Notes: a model not told the origin generated them from the sequence alone. DNA of 64,000 nt from Kiritimatiellia bacterium (GCA_040767085.1 JAXGPF010000007.1:192001-256000); one strand, 5' to 3'. Counted from the stretch's first letter, positions 1-61,337 are shown. Program-made: numbers and translations.

Positions 1-548
1 ACCGCCTGCATCAGTCCGCCGTGGTAATTTGACGAAAAGCAGATGATGTCCGGCCGGAGCGCAGCATACTCGCGGCACAGGCTGTCGAAATTCAAATCAA
101 AACAGACGGCGCCGCCCAGGCGTCCGACAGGCGTGTCAACCGCCACCGCGCCTGGCCCGGAGGCGAGTCCCCTGTCGATTTCCGGCTGGGTCAGATGGGT
201 TTTGTGGTAGGCGCCAAGCACGCCGTCCGGCCCGACGAAGACGATGGAGTTGTATGCCTGGCCCCGGTCGCGGAGCTTGATGGAGCCGGCCAGGCAGGTT
301 TTTGCGGAGGCGGCGTAATCCAGGTACATCGAAAGAAAGCGGCCGGGGCGCGCAATTTCCTCCGCATCGTCCACGTCCTGCCCGAATGATTCCACGCTTT
401 CGCACAAGACCACCAGGTCATGGCCGAGCCCGCGCAATGATTCCAAGGCCTGCCTGGTATGCTCCCAGGCGGCATCTTTCGAGGCCGGATGGCCGCGTTC
501 CAAGACGGCATTAAACATCACGGCGGCGACATTAACGTATCGGGACAT
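1..548 (-). CDS. carbon-nitrogen hydrolase (nitrilase superfamily), 3' end runs off window
   Basis: Not in ORF track; manual translation from ATG 548: MSRYVNVAAVMF...DLVVLCE...YNSIVFVGPDGVLGAYHKTHL...GRLGGAVCFDLNF (E-K-C triad motifs); GGAGGAG RBS upstream. Confidence 0.85.
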   Translation of the reverse strand, partial: MSRYVNVAAVMFNAVLERGHPASKDAAWEHTRQALESLRGLGHDLVVLCESVESFGQDVDDAEEIARPGRFLSMYLDYAASAKTCLAGSIKLRDRGQAYNSIVFVGPDGVLGAYHKTHLTQPEIDRGLASGPGAVAVDTPVGRLGGAVCFDLNFDSLCREYAALRPDIICFSSNYHGGLMQA

Positions 549-670
549 GGCGGGCTCCTCCCTGGCGCCAATCGACTTGGAAGCGCAAACATTTTGATCA
601 TCCGATGACCGGCATACAAGCAAAACGTTTCGGAATTATCTGCATTCGCAACAACGAATGGTTGCGCGTT

Positions 671-1873
671 TTACCCTGCGGCGCCGCCGGACTTATGCGT
701 CAGGCCCGGAATGCCAACCGGACGGCCACCCGCCATGGACTGCTCGGCGCAAACCGCCAGCGCTGTCGAGTAATATCCCTGTTCCATGGCCGCCCGGTTG
801 CCCCGGCAGTCGCGCCGCGCTATCCGCTCGTGAAACCGGCGGCACAGTCCGACATCGCCGCCGCCATGGCTGCTGCCGTCAGGCACGGGTTTCCATTCCT
901 CGACGCGGCGGTCTTGGGCATGGGCATATTCAATGCGTATCAGGAAACGGCCGGGATTGTCATAATAACCGTACAGCTTGCCTTTGTCGCCCACCAGCCA
1001 GAACTCGCGGGAATAATCCGGCGTGAAGTGGCACTCATGAAAAGTCGCCTGGCCGCCGCCGGCGTAGGATATGCTCAACACGGAGTGGTCGTTCAGATTC
1101 ATGGCCTTGCTCCAGACACAGACATCCGGCATCTCCACCTTGACATTGTAGTCCAACTGCAAGCCCATGGCCTCCAGCCGGTAAGGACAGCGGCGCGCCG
1201 GACAATCCCGGCAACGCCGGCCGGCGGCATATTTGCGGCCATAGAAAACCAGGCCGCCCGTCCCATAGACCTTGACCGGCGGGCGGCCCATGAACCAATT
1301 CAGCAAGTCCAGCGAATGCGACGCCTTTTGCAGCAGGAGCGAACGGTAAAAAGCCTGCTGTTTACGGGGATCATGGAAGTAATAATTCCCGCCAACGGAC
1401 ACGTTGTCAAAAACATGCCCCAGGATGACCCGGCCAATGCGTCCCTCGTCCAGCAGGGCTTTGATGCGTTCGAACAATGTGCAGCAGCGCAGTTCGAACC
1501 CGACCATGAACACGCTGCGCGCCTGGCGGACTGTAGCGGCGATCCGGCGCGCATCCGCCAGGGTTTGGCATAACGGCTTCTCGACCAGCACGTGTTTCCC
1601 CGCGCGCAAGGCGGCAATGGCCGGCGCGGCGTGATCAGGATCATTGGTGGTAATCAATACTGCTTCGATTTCCGGATCTTGCAGCATGGCATCCAGGTTC
1701 CGGTAACAGGCCACCGCTTCGCCATACTTGCGGCGGATCCGGTCCAGGACCGGCGCAGAATAATCGCACACTGCCCGCAGTCTGAATCCATGCGCGGCAT
1801 TGCCGTACATTTCCGCAAAATACTCTCCCCGCGCCCCCATCCCAACAACCGCGGTCTTGATGATTTTCCGCAT
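671..1873 (-). CDS. Gfo/Idh/MocA family oxidoreductase
   Basis: Rossmann VVGMGARG, AGKHVLVEKP, GFELR, HSLD motifs; start placed at MRKIIK. Confidence 0.9.
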   Translation of the reverse strand: MRKIIKTAVVGMGARGEYFAEMYGNAAHGFRLRAVCDYSAPVLDRIRRKYGEAVACYRNLDAMLQDPEIEAVLITTNDPDHAAPAIAALRAGKHVLVEKPLCQTLADARRIAATVRQARSVFMVGFELRCCTLFERIKALLDEGRIGRVILGHVFDNVSVGGNYYFHDPRKQQAFYRSLLLQKASHSLDLLNWFMGRPPVKVYGTGGLVFYGRKYAAGRRCRDCPARRCPYRLEAMGLQLDYNVKVEMPDVCVWSKAMNLNDHSVLSISYAGGGQATFHECHFTPDYSREFWLVGDKGKLYGYYDNPGRFLIRIEYAHAQDRRVEEWKPVPDGSSHGGGDVGLCRRFHERIARRDCRGNRAAMEQGYYSTALAVCAEQSMAGGRPVGIPGLTHKSGGAAG

Positions 1874-1924
1874 GATCCATCCTTTCGACTCGAACGCGGC
1901 ATCCTGCATTCCGCGCAAAATATA

Positions 1925-3580
1925 TCAGGTGAGTATCTGCCCATCCGCCAACAGACGCCGCTGCAGCCGGTCATAATCAATGTGCTGGATGGCGGTCTGC
2001 TCGTCAATGGCATGAGCGGCGGCCGTCGCGGCCGACTGGCCCAGCAGCATGAATACCGGTTCCATGCGGATGGAGCCGAAGGCGATGTGGGAGGCTGAAA
2101 GGCAGACGGGCACGGCCAGATTCACGCATTCTCCGGCGCAGGGGACAATAGACTGGAAAGAAATCGGGTATGGCGCAAAATTGCCCACCTCCACATCCCC
2201 CTCGTTGCGCACAAATCCGTCCGCGCCGACATATCGCCGGACATGATGCGAATCCATGCCATAAGCGGCCATCCCGACCGGGTCGGCCGCCTTCACCCGT
2301 CCTTCGCAATGGTGTTGCGTCATCACCATTGCGCCGATCATCCGGCGGGCTTCCCGGATGTAAAGTTGTTCCGGCCAGCCGGCGTTTTCGAGGAATTCAT
2401 CCTTGCACACTCCCCAACAGCTTACCACAGCCCGGATGGCGGCCGGCACGCGGGGATGATTCGCCAATGCCCACATCAACCCCTGCTGGTATTTGAGATG
2501 CGCCCGAACAATCGCTGCGCGTTCCGCGTAAGTCCCTGCCGGATAACGGAAATTCCGCCCGATAAAATCGGTCGATACCCCTCCGCGGTTGTTGGTGTCC
2601 GTTTTACGGTTAGGCATTGGGGTATTGATCCAGGGAATTGCGGTTTCGCCCGCCTCATAATTCCGGAACAGGAGTTCATAATCCAGGTCGCAATACCCCG
2701 CGGGCTTCTGAAACGGCAGCCGGTTTTCAGGATGATCCGTCAGGCACATGCGGAAACAGTAAGCTTGCAAACGCGCATCGCCCGCGCCTTCCACGCCGGG
2801 CCCGGCGGGATCGATGCCCGGCAAAAGCCCGCTGGCCGGCTGGCCCCTGACAACATAAGGATCAACTCCGGGCCGGAGCTGATGATAAACCGCCTGCCGG
2901 GCGCGCACGCCGTTGAGATTTTCGCCATAAACGGATTCCGCTTCCCGTCCGATCCGGCAAGCAACACCGGCCGCGGCCATCAAATCGCCTTCGTAGGAGG
3001 CATCTATAAACATGGCCGCGCGGAATTTCCGGCCGGATTCCATTTCAATTGACAATATCCGCCGGCCGTCCATGGCCACGCCGCCGGCGCGATTCAAACG
3101 TTCGCCATACGCCACCGGCACGTTTGTTTCGGCGATAAAATCCGCGAATATCTTCTGCGCCGCGGATGGCTCGAAAGTCCACATGCAGTCTTCGCTTTGC
3201 GCGGCGCGGTTGGCGCCCGTGGCCTGATATGATTCGGGTTTTTGCCAGCGCCAGTTGGAGGCGTCAGCGTAAAACGCCCTGACGCGCCGATAAAATTCCC
3301 GGGCCAAGCCGCCGATCGCCGCCTTGCTGCCGATATCCGTCCGGCCCAGACCGCCGGTTGTCAGGCCGCCGATCCGGCGTCCCGGCTCGACGATCACTGC
3401 CGTTTTGTTCATGCGGACGGCCTGAATAGCGGCCATCACGCCCGCCGAAGTGCCGCCGTAAACAACGATATCCGCCCGGTATTCCGCCGGCAACGTTTCG
3501 CTATGTTTGCCCGCGGCGCGGTCCGGCAAATCCACGCCGCGGGCCGGCGCGTCTGCCTGGGATTGATCCGGCTTGCGCAT
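1925..3580 (-). CDS. FAD-dependent oxidoreductase (xanthan-lyase-associated type)
   Basis: DIVVYGGTSAG, IGGLTTGGLG, FIDASYEGDL, YIREARR, SASHIAFGSIRMEP motifs. Confidence 0.9.
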   Translation of the reverse strand: MRKPDQSQADAPARGVDLPDRAAGKHSETLPAEYRADIVVYGGTSAGVMAAIQAVRMNKTAVIVEPGRRIGGLTTGGLGRTDIGSKAAIGGLAREFYRRVRAFYADASNWRWQKPESYQATGANRAAQSEDCMWTFEPSAAQKIFADFIAETNVPVAYGERLNRAGGVAMDGRRILSIEMESGRKFRAAMFIDASYEGDLMAAAGVACRIGREAESVYGENLNGVRARQAVYHQLRPGVDPYVVRGQPASGLLPGIDPAGPGVEGAGDARLQAYCFRMCLTDHPENRLPFQKPAGYCDLDYELLFRNYEAGETAIPWINTPMPNRKTDTNNRGGVSTDFIGRNFRYPAGTYAERAAIVRAHLKYQQGLMWALANHPRVPAAIRAVVSCWGVCKDEFLENAGWPEQLYIREARRMIGAMVMTQHHCEGRVKAADPVGMAAYGMDSHHVRRYVGADGFVRNEGDVEVGNFAPYPISFQSIVPCAGECVNLAVPVCLSASHIAFGSIRMEPVFMLLGQSAATAAAHAIDEQTAIQHIDYDRLQRRLLADGQILT

Positions 3581-3590
3581 CAAGTTTTCC

Positions 3591-5162
3591 TCAGTTCCGA
3601 TTCAGTTCGTTGAAAATGCCGCGGACCGCCGCCTCGAAAATCCCCTCCCACTCCGGCGCCAACAGGCACTCAGTCGCCTCGTAACCGCCGCGGGGATAGT
3701 AACTGGCGGGAGGAGCATAATGGAGGTAGCCGTTGGACAGCGAGACGACCAAAGTGTTTTTAAAAGGCGACATGCGCTTCACGTTCAGGCCGACTTCCGC
3801 CAGCAGTTCCATCGGCGCGGTGATCAAAACGCTGTCGCCAATCCGGATGCCCTGGATTTCGGCGGGCACGCGCTCGGCGCCAAGCGTCTCGATAATTTCG
3901 TGGTGCTTCCGCAGGGTGGCGATTTTCTCTTCGTTCCGCGCCATGCGTTCCATGGCGCGGATACTGGCCAGGTATTTCGCCACCGCGTTGCGATTTCGTT
4001 TATCAAGCGCCTGCATGAGCGGATTGCCGCATTGTTCAGCCTGCATATAACGAAAGGCCCAGTGGGATGGATAGTCCGGATGCAGCGCATACTTGAGATA
4101 TAGCGGCAGAAATTCCTTGAATCCCAGGGGGGTGTACCTCAGCGAAGCCAGGTCGGCAGCCTGGGCCTGCTGCAACTGTGCCATCACTTCGTGAAGATCA
4201 GTTCTGAGCGGAAACTCAACCTGGCGCGCAGTTCTCCGCAGCGTTGCCGGCCCGGTCGCGATGCCGCGGCAGGCTTCGACTACATCCTGGCCCAGACGCG
4301 TCCCGAATTCGAGGGAACTGGCTGGAAGTCCGGTATCATACCGCGACACCTCGTCAATGTCGCCCTGCGCGCCCTGGAGGAAAAGCGCCATGGCGACGCC
4401 GTCGAGATTGGCCTCGATGTAACGCATGGCGACGCCGGCATGATCGGCGGTGATATGGCCCTGGGCGCCTTGGGGCGAGCCGAGCAGGAGATGCGATGCA
4501 AAGTTGTAAACCACGGCCAGCGGGCTGCCGTCCAGGCGATCCACCCGCAGGATGCCGATCTCGGGATCGATGGGACGCAATCCCGCGACCGCTTCATCCG
4601 GCGGCGCGGGGTTGCAGCCCCGGAAGGTATAGTCCGTCCCGTCCCGCATCATCATGGTGCGGTTAAAAGTGAGACGATCCTCGCGCCGTGCGCCCGCCCC
4701 GATTTTGACCGGCATCCGGTTCTGCAACGCCTGGCTGACCGCCGCCACGGTTTTGGCAATTTGCTCATCATCGCTGCAGAGCATCCGCGCCACTTGATGA
4801 GTATGCGATGCGCTGATGTTCACGCAGGCGCCGGGGAGGCCCAGTTCCTGCTCCAGCCGCAAGCGCAGTTTCGGCACAAAATCATCCGCGCTGGAATCCA
4901 AAATGTTCTGACTGATGGTGCGGGCGGCAATGGCGGTGACGTCCATGGTGACCAGCGCCACCATTTCCCGCCCATCGTCCAGGACCAGCGCGCGCACGTA
5001 AAGCGGATCGTCCACCGTAATGCGCTGTTGCAGGTATTGGGGCGGAATGTGCGCCTTGACCTTTTCGGAAAGCACATCCGCCCAGATACCGTCCGCCCGG
5101 CAGGTGATCTCCGCCCTGCCCACCCCCGCCCGCAGGCATTTGATTTCGGGTGTCACAGGCAT
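3591..5162 (-). CDS. neutral/alkaline ceramidase-like amidohydrolase
   Basis: AGVGRAEIT, DPLYVRALVL, ASHTH, NFASH, FLQGAQGD, YxxGGYE motifs; alternative TTG start at 5174. Confidence 0.75.
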   Translation of the reverse strand: MPVTPEIKCLRAGVGRAEITCRADGIWADVLSEKVKAHIPPQYLQQRITVDDPLYVRALVLDDGREMVALVTMDVTAIAARTISQNILDSSADDFVPKLRLRLEQELGLPGACVNISASHTHQVARMLCSDDEQIAKTVAAVSQALQNRMPVKIGAGARREDRLTFNRTMMMRDGTDYTFRGCNPAPPDEAVAGLRPIDPEIGILRVDRLDGSPLAVVYNFASHLLLGSPQGAQGHITADHAGVAMRYIEANLDGVAMALFLQGAQGDIDEVSRYDTGLPASSLEFGTRLGQDVVEACRGIATGPATLRRTARQVEFPLRTDLHEVMAQLQQAQAADLASLRYTPLGFKEFLPLYLKYALHPDYPSHWAFRYMQAEQCGNPLMQALDKRNRNAVAKYLASIRAMERMARNEEKIATLRKHHEIIETLGAERVPAEIQGIRIGDSVLITAPMELLAEVGLNVKRMSPFKNTLVVSLSNGYLHYAPPASYYPRGGYEATECLLAPEWEGIFEAAVRGIFNELNRN

Positions 5163-56490: not shown

Positions 56491-57330
56491 TCAAGTTGCG
56501 GCGCCCGCCAGCACGGCAAACTCTGCCCGCGCCGCCGGCTCATCGATGGTTTCCGCCAACAGCACCAGTTCCGTCTGGCCGTCATAATCCCGGAGTTCCG
56601 CGACTTGCAGGACGCCGGCCGCGGCCTGGACGGCCAGCGCCGGAGCCCCGGCCAGGCGCACATAGCCTTTCATCCGCCACAACCGGGGGGCCCAGGCGTA
56701 TAAAAATTTTTCCGCCGCATCGCGCGACGCCGGCCGGCCGGAGCGCAGGACCAGGGCCGTGGATGGCGGGCGGCCGGCGGGATCAATGCCGGCATGTTCA
56801 ACGGCGCGGCGCCGTGCCACCGGCTCAGCGGAAAATTCACGGAATGCATGTCCTACATCCACGCCGCAATACCGGGCGGTTTCCACCGCCGCCAGCGGGT
56901 TCAGTTCCCGCACGCGCCGGCGAATCAGTTCCAGCGCTTCCGCTCCGGCCTGTTCGGAGTGGTTGATGATGACGGTATCGGCCACGCGCACCTGATGGCG
57001 CACGCAACGCACCGCATCCGCCATACGTGTAAAATTTCTCGCATCCGCCACGCACCAGCTATGGCGCAGGCATATCCGCCCCCGCAATTCCGGCGCCGCC
57101 AGCATTTGGACGATGGAAAGCGGGTCTGCCAGGCCGGTGGCCTCCAGGATGACCGCGTCCATCGGCTGCCGGCGCAGCATGACGGCCAGGCCTTGCCGGA
57201 ATTCCGCCAGGCGGCAGACGCAAAAGACCGAGCCGCCCTGGACCTCGATCATTTCGAAAGGCAGGCCGGTCGCCCGCAACTCGCGGCCATCCACGCCGCT
57301 TGCGGCGAATTCATTCTGGACAACCAGGAC
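56491..57330 (-). pseudogene. CobW/COG0523 GTPase, 3' part (transposon-disrupted)
   Basis: LVVQNEF, GSVFCVC, LEATGLADP, QVRVAD, RMKG; P-loop lies at 61070-61180. Confidence 0.9.
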
Positions 57331-57483
57331 TGAGAGCGATCACAAAAAATGATGGATGATTTGTCGTGATAATTGATGGATATGTGTTTGGCCTGGCTTG
57401 TTTAATGAGAGCCTATTCGCTTTTTAATTGGGCGTGACGTGTAGGCGCCCCGTCTTTACTTGTCGTGTTTAAGTGTTGTTGCT

Positions 57484-58314
57484 TTATTGGGATTTTTGCG
57501 TTGATATGGCACGGATATTGAACACATCGAAGAAGAGTTTTTCATCAATTTGGTCGAGTTCACGTTGTAATGCGGCGGCCAAGAGGTCGTTGGCCATGTT
57601 CATTAAAGACCGGTAATTTCCGGCGGCATGTTCGCAAAGCGCGGCGATTACGGGGTCTGAAAGCAATCTGGTGTTGCCGGCCTGTTTTAGCTGATGGTTG
57701 AGGCATTCGCGTAGTTGTTGAGGGGTGGCGGGGTCACAGGGCAGCCGGCAGCGGATACGGCTGGCCATTGGCAACAGGTCGTCGCTGCGCAGTTTGTTAA
57801 CCAGTCTTTCATCCCCGGCGAGCACCACGGTGAGGATGCTACGCGAGTCGAGTTCGGCGCTTGCCAGCATGCGCAGTTCACCCAGTGTTCCCGGCGTCAT
57901 GAGTTGGGCTTCATCGATGAGGAGGACGGGGCGGTAGAGCGAGGCGTCAATATGGGTCAGCCATTTTTGACGCAACGCCTTGGCGCCGCCCCAACGGTTG
58001 CTTGGCGTCAGCGTAGTTGCGAACAGATCGCCCATTTCGCGGTAGAAGTCGGCCACGGATGCTTGTGGTCGGGTGATGATGCCGACGGTGATATCCGGGA
58101 TGCCGCGCAGCCGGTCGGCCAGAATACGCAGCGCCACGCTTTTGCCGGATCCGGGCGAGCCGGTAACCAACGCGAAGCCGCCTTCGCCGACCTGATTTTC
58201 AATCCGCCAGCAAAAATGTTCGACGGCCGGCGTCCTGAATAGTGCGGCGGTCGGCACTTCCTGGCAGAACGGGTTGTACTTCAGGCTGTATAGCGCAAGT
58301 AGTTTTTTACTCAT
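57484..58314 (-). CDS. ExeA/GspA-like AAA+ ATPase (transposition helper)
   Basis: YSLKYNPF, GSPGSGKS Walker A, LLIDEAQ Walker B. Confidence 0.92.
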   Translation of the reverse strand: MSKKLLALYSLKYNPFCQEVPTAALFRTPAVEHFCWRIENQVGEGGFALVTGSPGSGKSVALRILADRLRGIPDITVGIITRPQASVADFYREMGDLFATTLTPSNRWGGAKALRQKWLTHIDASLYRPVLLIDEAQLMTPGTLGELRMLASAELDSRSILTVVLAGDERLVNKLRSDDLLPMASRIRCRLPCDPATPQQLRECLNHQLKQAGNTRLLSDPVIAALCEHAAGNYRSLMNMANDLLAAALQRELDQIDEKLFFDVFNIRAISTQKSQ

Positions 58315-58323
58315 GATGTTTGA

Positions 58324-59820
58324 TTACTCCTGTATTTTGAGTTCATCCTTTGGCAGATAAGCTGGCGGCAGCCCGGTGGCGGCATAATCCGCGATGAATT
58401 TGCGCAACAGTGGCGCCATGCCGGTTGACCGCGGCGGCGGCGATGTTGGATCGGGATGGTCGCCTATGGTTTCCTTTTGGCGGCGGTGGCCGTCGGCGTT
58501 TTTGTGTTTGTCTTGCGGAAATAGCCGCGTCAAGATTTGATCGCTACGCGCGTCGGCCAGATGAACATAAGACAAGTCCCATGCGGCGTATCGCACGCCG
58601 ATGCGTTTGATATGGCGGTAGCGGGAAGGCACCTCGAAGCGTACGCCGTCAATGCTAATGGTGCCATCACTAAAGCGTTGCGTTCGCGAACATCCGGCGG
58701 TGAATGCCTGGCGCAAGACTTCCGCGGATGGGCAAGTTCTGCCCACGTCTTTGACATTGACAAAACGATCAACCGGCGATCGGGCGGTCGCGGAATGCAC
58801 CTTGCGGTTATATTCCATTTCGACCCAGGCCTGTGTCGCCTGGTTGAGCTGTGCCAGCGTCAAATCAGGGCAGCCGCCGAGCATGGGCAGCAACCGCCCT
58901 TCTATTTGCCCCCAGAAGGATTCCTGTTTGCCGTTCTGGTAGGCGCTATAGGGCAGCGTCTTCTCGTGTAAAACACCTAAACGCGCGAGTCCTTGCGTGG
59001 TTTCGTCGGCCGTCATGGCGCCGCCGTTGTCCGTCATCAGCGCCCTTGGCAGACCGCATTTTTGCATGGCTTGGCTTAACCCATGCGTCAGGTTCTCGGC
59101 GGTTTCCGCCAGGTACCACTGCAAGTGGCAGCACATGCGGGAATGATCGTCCAACACTCCAAGTAATTGCGGCCGCAACCACTCGCCGGGCTTGGTCAAG
59201 ACCGGGATTGATCCCTGATGAAAGTCCAAATGCCATAGCGCATTGACGTACTCGCTTTCGTAGGAGCGCACCTCTAAAGCCGCAAACCGCGCTTCGGCGG
59301 CCCGGGCGCCGGCGGTATCCCGGCGCCCGCCCAAACGGCGGCGCTTGAACATCCCCGCGGCACGCATATAACGGCGCACCGACACATAAGACGGTAACGC
59401 TCCCAGTCGCGAATCCTCCGCCACGCGCACCGCCAGGTTGTCGTAATGCAGTTGGCAACTCCACTCCGGGTGTTGTTGGTGCTGGACGCTTATTGCATTG
59501 CGCAACTCAAAGCTCAAACTGCGATGGGCGCCATGATCGTTGCGCACCTTGCGCGTCAACACGCCGACCGGGTCTTTGGCCCCATGTAAAGCCCGGTAAT
59601 ACCACCGCTCAATCGTGGAAGACCCAAACCGCACCCATTGCCCCGTCACCGGATGCCGCCATTGCTTGCCGGCCAGAAGCGCAATCTCCGCCTGCAAATC
59701 GCCCCGCCCCGGCGGCGCCGCCAATAATGGGCCAATTACGCTGAAACGAAAATGCGCCCACCGCGCGCATCCCCCGGAACCACCGCCACCCGCGCTATAA
59801 TCCGCATCCTGTTTTGGCAT
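58324..59820 (-). CDS. DDE transposase (rve core, Mu-like C-terminus)
   Basis: WAHFRFSVIGPLL, LWHLDF, LDDHSR, TDNGG, QNGKQESFW, YNRKVHS; start placed at MPKQ. Confidence 0.92.
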   Translation of the reverse strand: MPKQDADYSAGGGGSGGCARWAHFRFSVIGPLLAAPPGRGDLQAEIALLAGKQWRHPVTGQWVRFGSSTIERWYYRALHGAKDPVGVLTRKVRNDHGAHRSLSFELRNAISVQHQQHPEWSCQLHYDNLAVRVAEDSRLGALPSYVSVRRYMRAAGMFKRRRLGGRRDTAGARAAEARFAALEVRSYESEYVNALWHLDFHQGSIPVLTKPGEWLRPQLLGVLDDHSRMCCHLQWYLAETAENLTHGLSQAMQKCGLPRALMTDNGGAMTADETTQGLARLGVLHEKTLPYSAYQNGKQESFWGQIEGRLLPMLGGCPDLTLAQLNQATQAWVEMEYNRKVHSATARSPVDRFVNVKDVGRTCPSAEVLRQAFTAGCSRTQRFSDGTISIDGVRFEVPSRYRHIKRIGVRYAAWDLSYVHLADARSDQILTRLFPQDKHKNADGHRRQKETIGDHPDPTSPPPRSTGMAPLLRKFIADYAATGLPPAYLPKDELKIQE

Positions 59821-59956
59821 TGCGCACCCCTCCCGTCTGGCCCGCCGCCAAGCGAAATCCATTCCGCTCCGCCGACCATTCCGTTGCAATGCCGCCCAAG
59901 GTATAACGCCCTCGCGCAAAGCTCCAGCGGCATGCTCTGCGGGAGAAAAACAACCA

Positions 59957-60511
59957 TCACATAACCACCGCCATTTCACACGAACCAGTGGTAATCGGCG
60001 CAATAAAAAGTAACAGCTTGAACATCCCGCGGCGCCGCTCCGCGCCAAACGCCTCCAATAAACTCAACGGCATCCGGGTAGCCTCAACCTGTGGCATAAA
60101 ACTCGCCCGAGCGCCCTTCCAAAACCCGCTCGTCACAAACACCGCGCGCCACCATGCAAGCCAACGCTTTAATGTTCGCCGGTCAATGCCCAGTTTTTCA
60201 ACCAATACCTGCGCGCGCCCAGCATTCAGACCATGCATCAGCGCGCTCACCAGCGCCACCACCACGCCCGCATAAACCCGGCGCCCAAGAAAACGCACGC
60301 TGGGCGGCGTCTTGCGCCGCCGACACCGCGCACAGTTAAAACTGTGGCGTTTATCCCACCCGACAACACCGCGCGGCTTGCGCGCATAATCGCCGCAATG
60401 CAGCTTGCCGCCGCAATACCGGCACATCTCCGCCTTGGCGGCCTGCGCAATCTTCCCATCAAATCGCTCTAAATACTTGATAAAATGACCGCTGTTGAGT
60501 ACCTTATGCAT
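59957..60511 (-). CDS. transposon-associated Zn-ribbon plus HTH protein (DUF6431-like)
   Basis: CRYCGG...YARKPRG...CARCRRR.TPPSVRFLGRRVY; LGIDRRTLKRW HTH; start placed at MHKV. Confidence 0.75.
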   Translation of the reverse strand: MHKVLNSGHFIKYLERFDGKIAQAAKAEMCRYCGGKLHCGDYARKPRGVVGWDKRHSFNCARCRRRKTPPSVRFLGRRVYAGVVVALVSALMHGLNAGRAQVLVEKLGIDRRTLKRWLAWWRAVFVTSGFWKGARASFMPQVEATRMPLSLLEAFGAERRRGMFKLLLFIAPITTGSCEMAVVM

Positions 60512-60883
60512 ATGCGTGCTCCCATAAATATCGCGGAATATATCGCAAATATCAGAAAACAATACCCGCAAATCCGGCCACTCGAGGAAGAAGACGACAT
60601 CGAATGGTGGAATCAGGGACTCGATCTGATTGACGCCGGCAAGCTTAACGACGCCGAGGAAATTTTCAACAAACTTATGCTCGCGCAACCCGATGTGCCC
60701 GACGGATTTAACGGGCTGGGAATGGTCTACGAAAAAAAAGGTCACCCGGCGCTCGCCGCGGCATTCTTCCGGGAAGCCCTGGTCAAGGCGCAAAAACAGG
60801 TGCAAGACGGATTCATGGATATAGAACTGCTCCAACCAATCCAAGCCGACCTCGACCGAGTCTTAAAAGCGTCGCTGCCATAA
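60512..60883 (+). CDS. small TPR protein carried by the transposon
   Basis: GKLNDAEEIFNKLMLAQPDVPDGFNGLGMVYEKKGHPALAAAFFREAL is TPR-like; start could be 60485, 60506 or 60512. Confidence 0.75.
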   Translation: MRAPINIAEYIANIRKQYPQIRPLEEEDDIEWWNQGLDLIDAGKLNDAEEIFNKLMLAQPDVPDGFNGLGMVYEKKGHPALAAAFFREALVKAQKQVQDGFMDIELLQPIQADLDRVLKASLP

Positions 60884-61069
60884 AAACGAAATCGCCCACG
60901 GCACGCTGCAAGGAGGCAGCGCCCCCGCTGCTGACGCAGCAGGCTACCGCATGCTCAAAAATCAAGGGGAGCAAAAAGAAGCACTTTATCTGATGGACGC
61001 TTGCCCACGTCCATCACTTAGCGTGACTCAAACAACCCGGAAAAACATCAATTACTCCGATCCTGCTCA

Positions 61070-61180
61070 GACCCGCCGCGCCGGCGCATGGGCGGCGAGA
61101 AAGCGCTTGATCAGGGTGGTCTTGCCGGCTCCTAAAAAACCCGACACCAGGAAAAACGGGATGGAAATCTCAGGTTGCAT
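61070..61180 (-). pseudogene. CobW/COG0523 GTPase, 5' part (37 codons)
   Basis: MQPEISIPFFLVSGFLGAGKTTLIKRFLAAHAPARRV joins in frame to LVVQNEF at 57327. Confidence 0.9.
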
Positions 61181-61213
61181 AAAAAAAACCGGGCCGCACT
61201 GGGCGGCCCGGTT
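61181..61213 (-). terminator. rRNA operon intrinsic terminator
   Basis: AACCGGGCCGC-CCAGT-GCGGCCCGGTT with 8-U tract downstream of 5S. Confidence 0.9.
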
Positions 61214-61221
61214 GGAAAAAA

Positions 61222-61337
61222 TCCCGGCGACGTGCTACTCTCCCATGGCCTACACCACAGTACCATCGCCGCTGGGGCCCTTCACGTTCGTGTTCGGAAT
61301 GGGAACGCGTGTTTCCTCCCCGCCATGGTCGCCGGAA
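61222..61337 (-). rRNA. rrf: 5S rRNA
   Basis: Reverse complement contains CCCATTCCGAAC, GCGATGGTACT, GGGAGAGTAG with paired termini; ends approximate. Confidence 0.95.

Follow-up and report, generated by a model that had tools for sequence, protein, structure and literature searches.

The window analysed here is a 64,000-nucleotide (nt) stretch of DNA from a Kiritimatiellia bacterium (GCA_040767085.1, JAXGPF010000007.1:192001-256000), and its positions 57331-61069 hold a transposon. We place a probability of about 0.9 on the reading that this segment belongs to the Tn6049 group, is intact and has moved recently, and that it interrupts a cobW-like GTPase gene after its first 37 codons, a short way downstream of a ribosomal RNA (rRNA) operon. 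The element is 3739 bp long and carries on one strand, the minus strand of the window, the three core genes in the order that it has in common with Tn6049: a small Cys-rich protein, a DDE transposase and an AAA+ ATPase. An earlier reading of the same DNA (the initial annotation) had described a complete transposon with a DDE transposase, an AAA+ helper and a zinc-ribbon/helix-turn-helix (HTH) protein, together with a tetratricopeptide repeat (TPR) gene, and gene calls and Pfam matches bear out that description. It had also proposed a distinct, poorly characterised family. Poorly characterised it is; the element is, however, a further member of a group that had already been named and tabulated.

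Boundaries, copies and empty site

The window's own genome was searched with 57331-61069. Five places matched, four of them at 100% identity over query positions 1-3739 exactly and the fifth at 97% over positions 2-3739, and the segment is thereby delimited as a discrete mobile unit of 3739 bp with the tips TGAG...CTCA. The flanking sequence was different at each of the five insertion places, and no shared motif was found in the flanks of the five insertions. Target duplications were perfect at four of the five copies (GTC, CGT, GAA and, at the window copy, GAC), and the flanks of the 97% copy read TTC vs. GTC, an imperfect duplication. In the window the left copy of the duplication occupies 57328-57330 (GAC on the plus strand, GTC on the gene strand) and the right copy, also 3 bp, 61070-61072. 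The fifth copy (L005, G000:C27:263410-267126) is decayed, with 50 gap openings, the three core genes broken and the tips GGAG and TTCA; this may reflect the age of a dead copy or, alternatively, a part of the assembly that contains many errors.

The gene interrupted by the window copy lies on the minus strand on both sides of the element. Its N-terminal 37 codons, with a GAGKTT P-loop, are at 61070-61180, and the C-terminal part of the cobW-like GTPase is at 56491-57330 (Pfam cobW, 2e-17; CobW_C, 2.5e-10). A search of five related genomes with the C-terminal part of the gene returned orthologues in three, all of the same genus. In all three the gene is intact and reads ...AHAPARRVLVVQNEF... 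with one GTC codon at the insertion site, as expected from the earlier proposal that removal of the element and one repeat restores the cobW-like reading frame.

The empty site was also found in public sequencing data. In one contig of run X4, position 57327 is followed directly by position 61070, so that 3742 bases (3739 + 3) are missing; three letters at the joint can be assigned to either flank, and the contig otherwise agrees with the window without a difference over 428 + 163 bases. The 3-bp duplication is therefore established by two routes, the single GTC of the orthologues and the X4 empty-site contig, and the exact ends and 3-bp duplication that had been described hold for the four identical copies as well. 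Run X4 also has the element in another flank, and the element was seen with other flanks in runs X4, X13 and X17. Because X4 contains both the empty-site contig and the element in a different flank, the insertion site is polymorphic in nature. Contigs of the RNA-library run X17 fall inside the element, which is no demonstration of transcription. Circle or tandem junctions of the element did not appear among the public contigs, but since rare forms are lost in contigs this absence carries no weight. Element DNA was present in only 3 of 41 close relatives of the window organism, its own genome (G000) counted in.

Core genes and the Tn6049 group

The transposase gene (58324-59820, minus strand) encodes a 498-amino acid (aa) DDE enzyme (Pfam rve, 2.4e-9) with the catalytic residues D199, D264 and E300. 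These residues are invariant in 42 sequences, as are several residues of a C-terminal tail that lies beyond a variable linker. Among the NCBIfam models, IS481 ranked first (3.1e-32), followed by IS3 (3.4e-20) and IS21 (3.6e-9; model NF033546, 36.6 bits vs. a cutoff of 160). When a transposase profile was compared with the PDB, the top match was the N-terminal DNA-binding region of ShCAST TnsB (1e-7), and retroviral integrase cores came next.

The ATPase gene (57484-58314, minus strand) encodes a 276-aa AAA+ protein (Pfam AAA_22, 3.4e-19), which matches the ExeA-like model TIGR03015 at 1.4e-22, under the model cutoff, and has no IstB-type Pfam match. In a comparison of the ATPase family profile with the PDB, MuB came first (1.7e-6) and ShCAST TnsC scored 3.6e-3; the profile alignment with Tn402 TniB (hhalign) had a probability of 62% and an E-value of 7.6e-5. 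The structural model of the ATPase has a mean predicted local distance difference test (pLDDT) score of 90.9. Foldseek places this model in the initiator clade of AAA+ proteins (Cdc6/ORC), with matches to Cdc6 (9.6e-12), MuB (1.4e-10; template modelling (TM) score, 0.70) and ShCAST TnsC (4.2e-9; TM score, 0.71). On these matches the ATPase falls among the AAA+ regulators typified by MuB, TnsC and TniB.

All three proteins have counterparts in Tn6049. In a tblastn search of a plasmid collection, the transposase matched the Tn6049 copies of pMOL28, pMOL30 and pHS87a with 53% identity along 93% of its length. The ATPase is 57% identical to the Tn6049 ATPase (E-value, 4e-112), and the small protein has 36% identity (E-value, 5e-27) to the Tn6049 protein of 181 aa that is labelled "transposase". 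The matching Tn6049 neighbourhood is annotated as a "transposase" of 181 aa, an "IS481 family transposase" of 479 aa, an "AAA family ATPase" of 277 aa and a hypothetical protein of 71 aa. Tn6049 was named in 2009-2010 and is described from Cupriavidus metallidurans CH34 as a 3.5-kb element present in 12 copies, all with an ATPase gene provisionally called gspA (PMC2864759). The account of the copy on Pseudomonas aeruginosa pHS87a gives 12-bp imperfect inverted repeats and a 4-bp direct repeat (PMC4739549). Relatives were tabulated in 2012 as "Tn6049 related transposons" with a "Mob prot", TnpA and an ATPase, often with an unknown open reading frame (ORF), and the hosts given there include Accumulibacter, Acidithiobacillus, Bordetella, Burkholderia, Desulfobacterium and Pelobacter (PMC3414803, Table S5). 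A catalogued family with the organisation of the window element therefore exists, since the gene order is the same, the three proteins are 36%, 53% and 57% identical, and relatives are listed in that table.

The two elements are also alike in size (3517 vs. 3739 bp), TG..CA tips, a similar terminal module of ~26 nt, imperfect inverted repeats, GATGG boxes repeated inside both ends, many identical copies per genome and a short duplication. The window element thus has the collinear core, the three homologous proteins and the tips and boxes of the group, and also a short duplication, which is no strict criterion because its length varies. No mechanistic or experimental study of the Tn6049 group was found in full-text literature searches.

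A scan of one genome per species yielded 202 transposase relatives, and the best 80 were kept (52-70% identity). They span many phyla, including Verrucomicrobiota, Planctomycetota, Acidobacteriota and Myxococcota. An ATPase gene follows the transposase gene at 78 of the 80 loci, and the other two stop at a contig edge; a small gene precedes it at 70. Nine of the 10 loci lacking the small gene have <410 bp of upstream sequence, and at the tenth (L014) the transposase match starts only at query residue 98. Lack of conservation of the zinc protein, which the initial annotation had named as grounds against its own account, was thus not found. The 71-aa ORF of Tn6049 was present at none of the 80 loci, and a TPR homologue, placed and oriented like that of the window element, at six (62% identical at L011, 50% at L035 and 31-36% at four others). 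Judged by the gene content of the 80 loci, the core consists of the three genes, and the remaining ORFs are cargo that may or may not be present.

Duplication length was compared across the group. Nine Tn6049 sites were taken from the plasmid collection (8 of the 20 matching records, plus pMOL30), at which the 3517-bp element with the tips TGTG...CACA has duplications of 6, 6, 5, 4, 4, 4 and 4 bp, one of 2 bp only and one site with none. A 4540-bp relative with the tips TGAG...CTCA in a Verrucomicrobiae genome has duplications of 3, 3 and 3 bp at three of four sites, with only 2 bp matching at the fourth, and a 3453-bp relative in a deltaproteobacterial genome has 4, 4 and 7 bp at three sites. 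For single-copy relatives the ends were sought automatically by inverted-repeat score (59 loci), and the procedure returned wrong ends at four G041 loci whose ends were known from a comparison of copies. Because it was unreliable, only the 15 of 59 rows in which both ends showed the terminal module by eye were used. Seven of these have duplications (3, 5, 4, 7, 3, 5 and 3 bp), and the other eight, all on contigs of 3.6-7.0 kb whose flanks are possibly assembly mixtures, have none.

On the contig of L011, which is 4645 bp long and comes from a metagenome-assembled genome (MAG), the picked ends fall on the first and last positions (1 and 4645), and both contig ends are thus element tips. The L086 contig, also of a MAG, starts at a tip (position 1) and has its second picked end at 3354 of 3513. 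Such a pattern is expected when a multicopy element assembles alone, and the flanks of short contigs were therefore not trusted for duplications.

The duplication thus ranges from 2 to 7 bp in the group and varies even among identical copies. By the ISfinder values quoted in PMC10045372, IS481 family duplications are 2-15 bp and those of many IS3 members 3 bp. Since the length varies, 3 bp is the short end of the range and not a mark of a family: it holds for the window element, as first described, and fails as a family constant. By the same token the match to a catalogued family extends to organisation and gene order, and not to duplication length, which is 4-6 bp at seven of the nine Tn6049 sites.

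Several observations weigh against the assignment and the account of transposition given below. Tn6049 differs from the window element in its tips (TGTG...CACA vs. TGAG), in its duplication (4-6 vs. 3 bp), in the 71-aa ORF that follows its ATPase gene and is absent here, and in being without the TPR gene. Any placement of the transposase among the DDE families is tentative, because IS481 is the top family yet its model (NF033577) scored 112.2 bits vs. a cutoff of 224, the Mu-transposase C-terminal domain PF09299 had no match when the last 159 residues were searched with a threshold as loose as E <= 10, and the hhalign alignment with Tn402 TniA was weak (probability, 3.9%). A scan of 57250-61250 for sigma-70-type promoters found no site; the organism may use other promoters. 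The putative roles of the ATPase and the small protein are drawn from co-conservation and homology.

Element ends, small protein and proposed mechanism

Both tips carry the motif TGAG-n3-GATC-n5-AA-n-TGATG. At the end downstream of the ATPase gene (inverted repeat right, IRR; 57331-57400), the TGAG-n3-GATC module is followed by two TGATGGA boxes in direct orientation, which start at 57350 and 57374 and occupy nt 20-26 and nt 44-50 counted from the tip. At the end upstream of the genes (inverted repeat left, IRL; 60990-61069), the module is accompanied by a palindrome with 9-nt arms at 60991-61016, TGATGGACG-n8-CGTCCATCA, formed by the boxes at 60991 and, on the minus strand, 61010. The motif, boxes and palindrome are all as the initial annotation had described them. 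TGATGGA occurs 14 times in the window vs. 7.93 +/- 2.74 in shuffled sequence, and 4 of the 14 are the boxes just named, all within <=79 nt of the element termini. The IRR-type terminal module is present in many relatives and in Tn6049.

In a genome of the same genus (L090, G002:C13), two pieces at 1500-1560 and about 1680-1760 are 83-89% identical to the ATPase-side end. They correspond to query positions 1-48 and 279-323, with unrelated sequence between them, and the region of the TGATGGATGATTTGTCG box falls in the first. The two pieces appear to be either what is left of a related element or a miniature form derived from one.

The small gene (59957-60511, minus strand) encodes a 184-aa protein with a C4 zinc ribbon and an HTH. 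In an alignment of 44 members, C30, C33, C60 and C63 and the segment T113-x2-R116-W117 are invariant and H38 is nearly so. No Pfam or NCBIfam family covers the protein, which has just weak matches to transposase-type HTH domains (HTH_23 in 20 of the 44 members, HTH_28 in 8). DUF6431 was matched by none of the 44 at E <= 0.01, and by neither the window protein nor that of Tn6049 at E <= 1. The structural model (pLDDT, 79; predicted TM score (pTM), 0.72) has a beta zinc ribbon at approximately residues 28-70 followed by a helical HTH domain. Foldseek against the PDB returned nothing at E <= 1e-3, only zinc-ribbon fragments, and the best VIA-align match had a Z-score of 4.3, under the tool's meaningful level. 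The C-terminal half has weak matches to LuxR/TrpR-type DNA-binding domains (Z ~3.5) and to the insertion sequence-encoded TnpE (Z 3.7). With the family profile, 2670 cluster representatives were retrieved at E <= 1e-3; the number fell to 1970 at 1e-10 and to 803 at 1e-30. Stand-alone proteins of about 180-200 aa make up most of them. The predicted complex of the small protein with the ATPase scored 0.02 vs. a mark of 0.32, which is uninformative either way.

In the mechanism that we propose, the DDE transposase, with its IS481-like core and TG..CA ends, would bind several sites that contain TGATGG and whose arrangement differs between the two ends, and would join the 3′ ends to the target with a short stagger (3 nt here, 2-7 nt across the group). 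The ATPase, as a relative of MuB, TnsC and TniB, is likely, with ATP, to bind the target DNA and to activate the transposase, and the conserved C-terminal tail of the transposase is the likely point of contact. The small C4 zinc-ribbon/HTH protein may act as a group-specific DNA-binding accessory factor. We infer this Mu/Tn7-like division of labour on an IS481-like enzyme because the ATPase resembles MuB and TnsC and the transposase resembles the N-terminal region of TnsB and IS481. In other elements, IS481/IS3-type transposases need no helper and probably use a copy-out-paste-in pathway. For the window element, copy-out-paste-in or another donor-preserving pathway is favoured by inference, because there is no resolvase, identical copies accumulate and the core is of IS481/IS3 type.

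Comparison with the known systems shows which features are shared. IS481 elements are single-gene elements of about 1 kb with TGT tips. The window element resembles them in its best-scoring transposase model, its TG-type ends and the duplication length, which varies between IS481 members; it differs in its transposase, which scores at half the curated cutoff, in its AAA+ partner and multi-box ends, and in having 3739 bp, three core genes and TGAG tips. With Mu, Tn7 and CAST it shares an ATPase nearest to MuB and TnsC in profile and fold, a transposase N-terminal region that matches TnsB, and asymmetric ends with several boxes. It lacks the Mu-transposase C-terminal Pfam domain, TnsA and a site-specific target, no TniQ homologue was found in it, and its duplication is 3 bp vs. 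the 5 bp of Mu and Tn7. IS21 (IstA/IstB) has the same logic of a transposase with an AAA+ helper and a short duplication; the window element differs from it in the low IS21 model score, the lack of an IstB Pfam match and the extra zinc-ribbon protein. Tn5053/Tn402 (TniA, TniB, TniQ and TniR) likewise combines a transposase, an AAA+ ATPase to which that of the window element is distantly related through TniB, and a third protein; the differences are the weak alignment with TniA, a small protein that showed no likeness to TniQ by hhalign and the lack of a resolvase in the window element. Tn402 is recorded as making 5-bp repeats (PMC4739549).

That the Tn6049 group constitutes a separate, fifth AAA+-assisted class, in which an IS481/IS3-type transposase is coupled to a MuB/TnsC-type target-DNA ATPase by a C4 zinc-ribbon/HTH protein and joins DNA with a loose stagger of 2-7 nt, is a tentative proposal that we hold to be rather doubtful.

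Two other accounts of the whole element were weighed. The proposal of the initial annotation, a distinct and uncatalogued ATPase-dependent family marked by a 3-bp duplication, with the zinc-ribbon protein as a TniQ-like target selector or adaptor, would explain why the duplication is uniform in the four identical copies and shorter than the clear Tn6049 duplications of 4-6 bp, and why the small protein belongs to no Pfam or NCBIfam family. We regard it as improbable, because Tn6049 has the same organisation and homologues of all three proteins, a table of relatives appeared in 2012, and duplications within the group measure anything from 2 to 7 bp. Its TniQ-like component could point to the conservation of the small protein and to the combination of a zinc ribbon with an HTH, as in TniQ, and found no support in the comparisons. 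The hhalign probability of the small-protein profile with Tn402 TniQ was 0.2%, TniQ was not among the fold-search matches of the model or among the PDB matches of the profile at E <= 10, the gene lies upstream of the transposase gene and not downstream of the ATPase gene, and the five insertion flanks have no motif or target sequence in common; a remote fold relation to TniQ and an adaptor role are nevertheless conceivable. The other account is that the element is an ordinary IS481-type insertion sequence in which the ATPase and the small protein are passengers without a part in transposition. The NCBI label of the Tn6049 transposase (IS481 family), the rank of IS481 as best NCBIfam model and the IS481 duplications of 2-15 bp reported in PMC10045372 would all accord with it. 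It is nevertheless hardly credible, since the three genes occur together and in the same order at essentially every locus with room for them and in many phyla, which is unexpected for passengers; by contrast, the TPR gene (6 of 80 loci) and the small ORF of Tn6049 (none of 80) do behave as passengers. The nearest solved relatives of the ATPase are the transposition ATPases MuB and TnsC, and the ends carry several asymmetric boxes, as in Mu and Tn7, not simple inverted repeats.

Within the Tn6049-group reading, the part played by the small protein can be read in more than one way. It might be a transcriptional regulator or end-binding factor acting on the TGATGGACG palindrome and no target selector, comparable to the Ner/repressor of Mu or OrfA of the IS3 family. 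Its gene is the first of the operon and adjoins the palindrome-bearing end, its HTH is of the transposase type, and the weak fold matches of its C-terminal half are to LuxR/TrpR-type domains and TnpE; all of these fold matches, however, are under the tool's meaningful level, and the box in the palindrome is that of the presumed transposase sites, two of which, in inverted orientation, may be all that the palindrome is. We consider this a serious possibility that falls somewhat short of even odds. Taken more broadly, a role as a regulator or as an end-binding assembly factor has close to even odds and is somewhat likelier than a TniQ-like target selector, which we consider unlikely.

Insertion context and significance

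The cobW-like gene lies next to an rrn operon on the minus strand. The 23S rRNA gene starts from 61448, the 5S rRNA gene is at 61222-61336, and the terminator hairpin of the operon, with an 11-bp stem and a T8 tail, is at 61213-61187. From the position of the hairpin, the insertion point is about 110-115 nt past the terminator, in agreement with the ~110 bp given earlier (~115 nt by this hairpin). The ATG of the cobW-like gene (61178-61180) comes directly after the hairpin, with no space for a promoter of its own between them.

The optional TPR gene (60485-60883, plus strand; 132 aa; Pfam TPR_2, 2.8e-8) reads towards the element end. Its position is between the small gene, with which it is arranged head to head, and the upstream end of the element; the starts of the two genes overlap by <=27 nt.

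Among the four identical copies, three (L001, the window copy (L002) and L003) interrupt an ORF that runs in the same direction as the element genes. These insertions are 45, 37 and 37 codons after the start codon and fall exactly at a codon boundary, so that the first TGA of the element closes the host frame. The gene interrupted at L003 (5240-6247, G000:C22) encodes an AAA_25 (RecA/DnaB-like) protein (Pfam, 5e-14) and is a target of insertion, not cargo. Random oriented sites in the window's genome fit a comparable criterion with p = 0.017 to 0.05, and the chance for three of five sites is 5e-5 to 1e-3, by a criterion picked after the data had been seen. The in-phase pattern near the 5′ end of genes was absent at the other two copies, at one site in the same genus and in the two other genomes examined. 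In the window's genome, the element may prefer the first ~40 codons of co-oriented genes, which three of the five sites fit.

These data mean that (i) the window bacterium carries a currently active transposon, by which one cobW-like GTPase gene has been knocked out; and (ii) the element, ordinary as a single element, belongs to a very widespread group in which a transposase resembling IS481 occurs with an ATPase resembling MuB and TnsC and with a third protein. The AAA+-assisted transposons (Mu, Tn7/CAST and IS21) are those that choose or avoid their targets, and the study of target capture could therefore profit from a compact system of three genes whose stagger is flexible.

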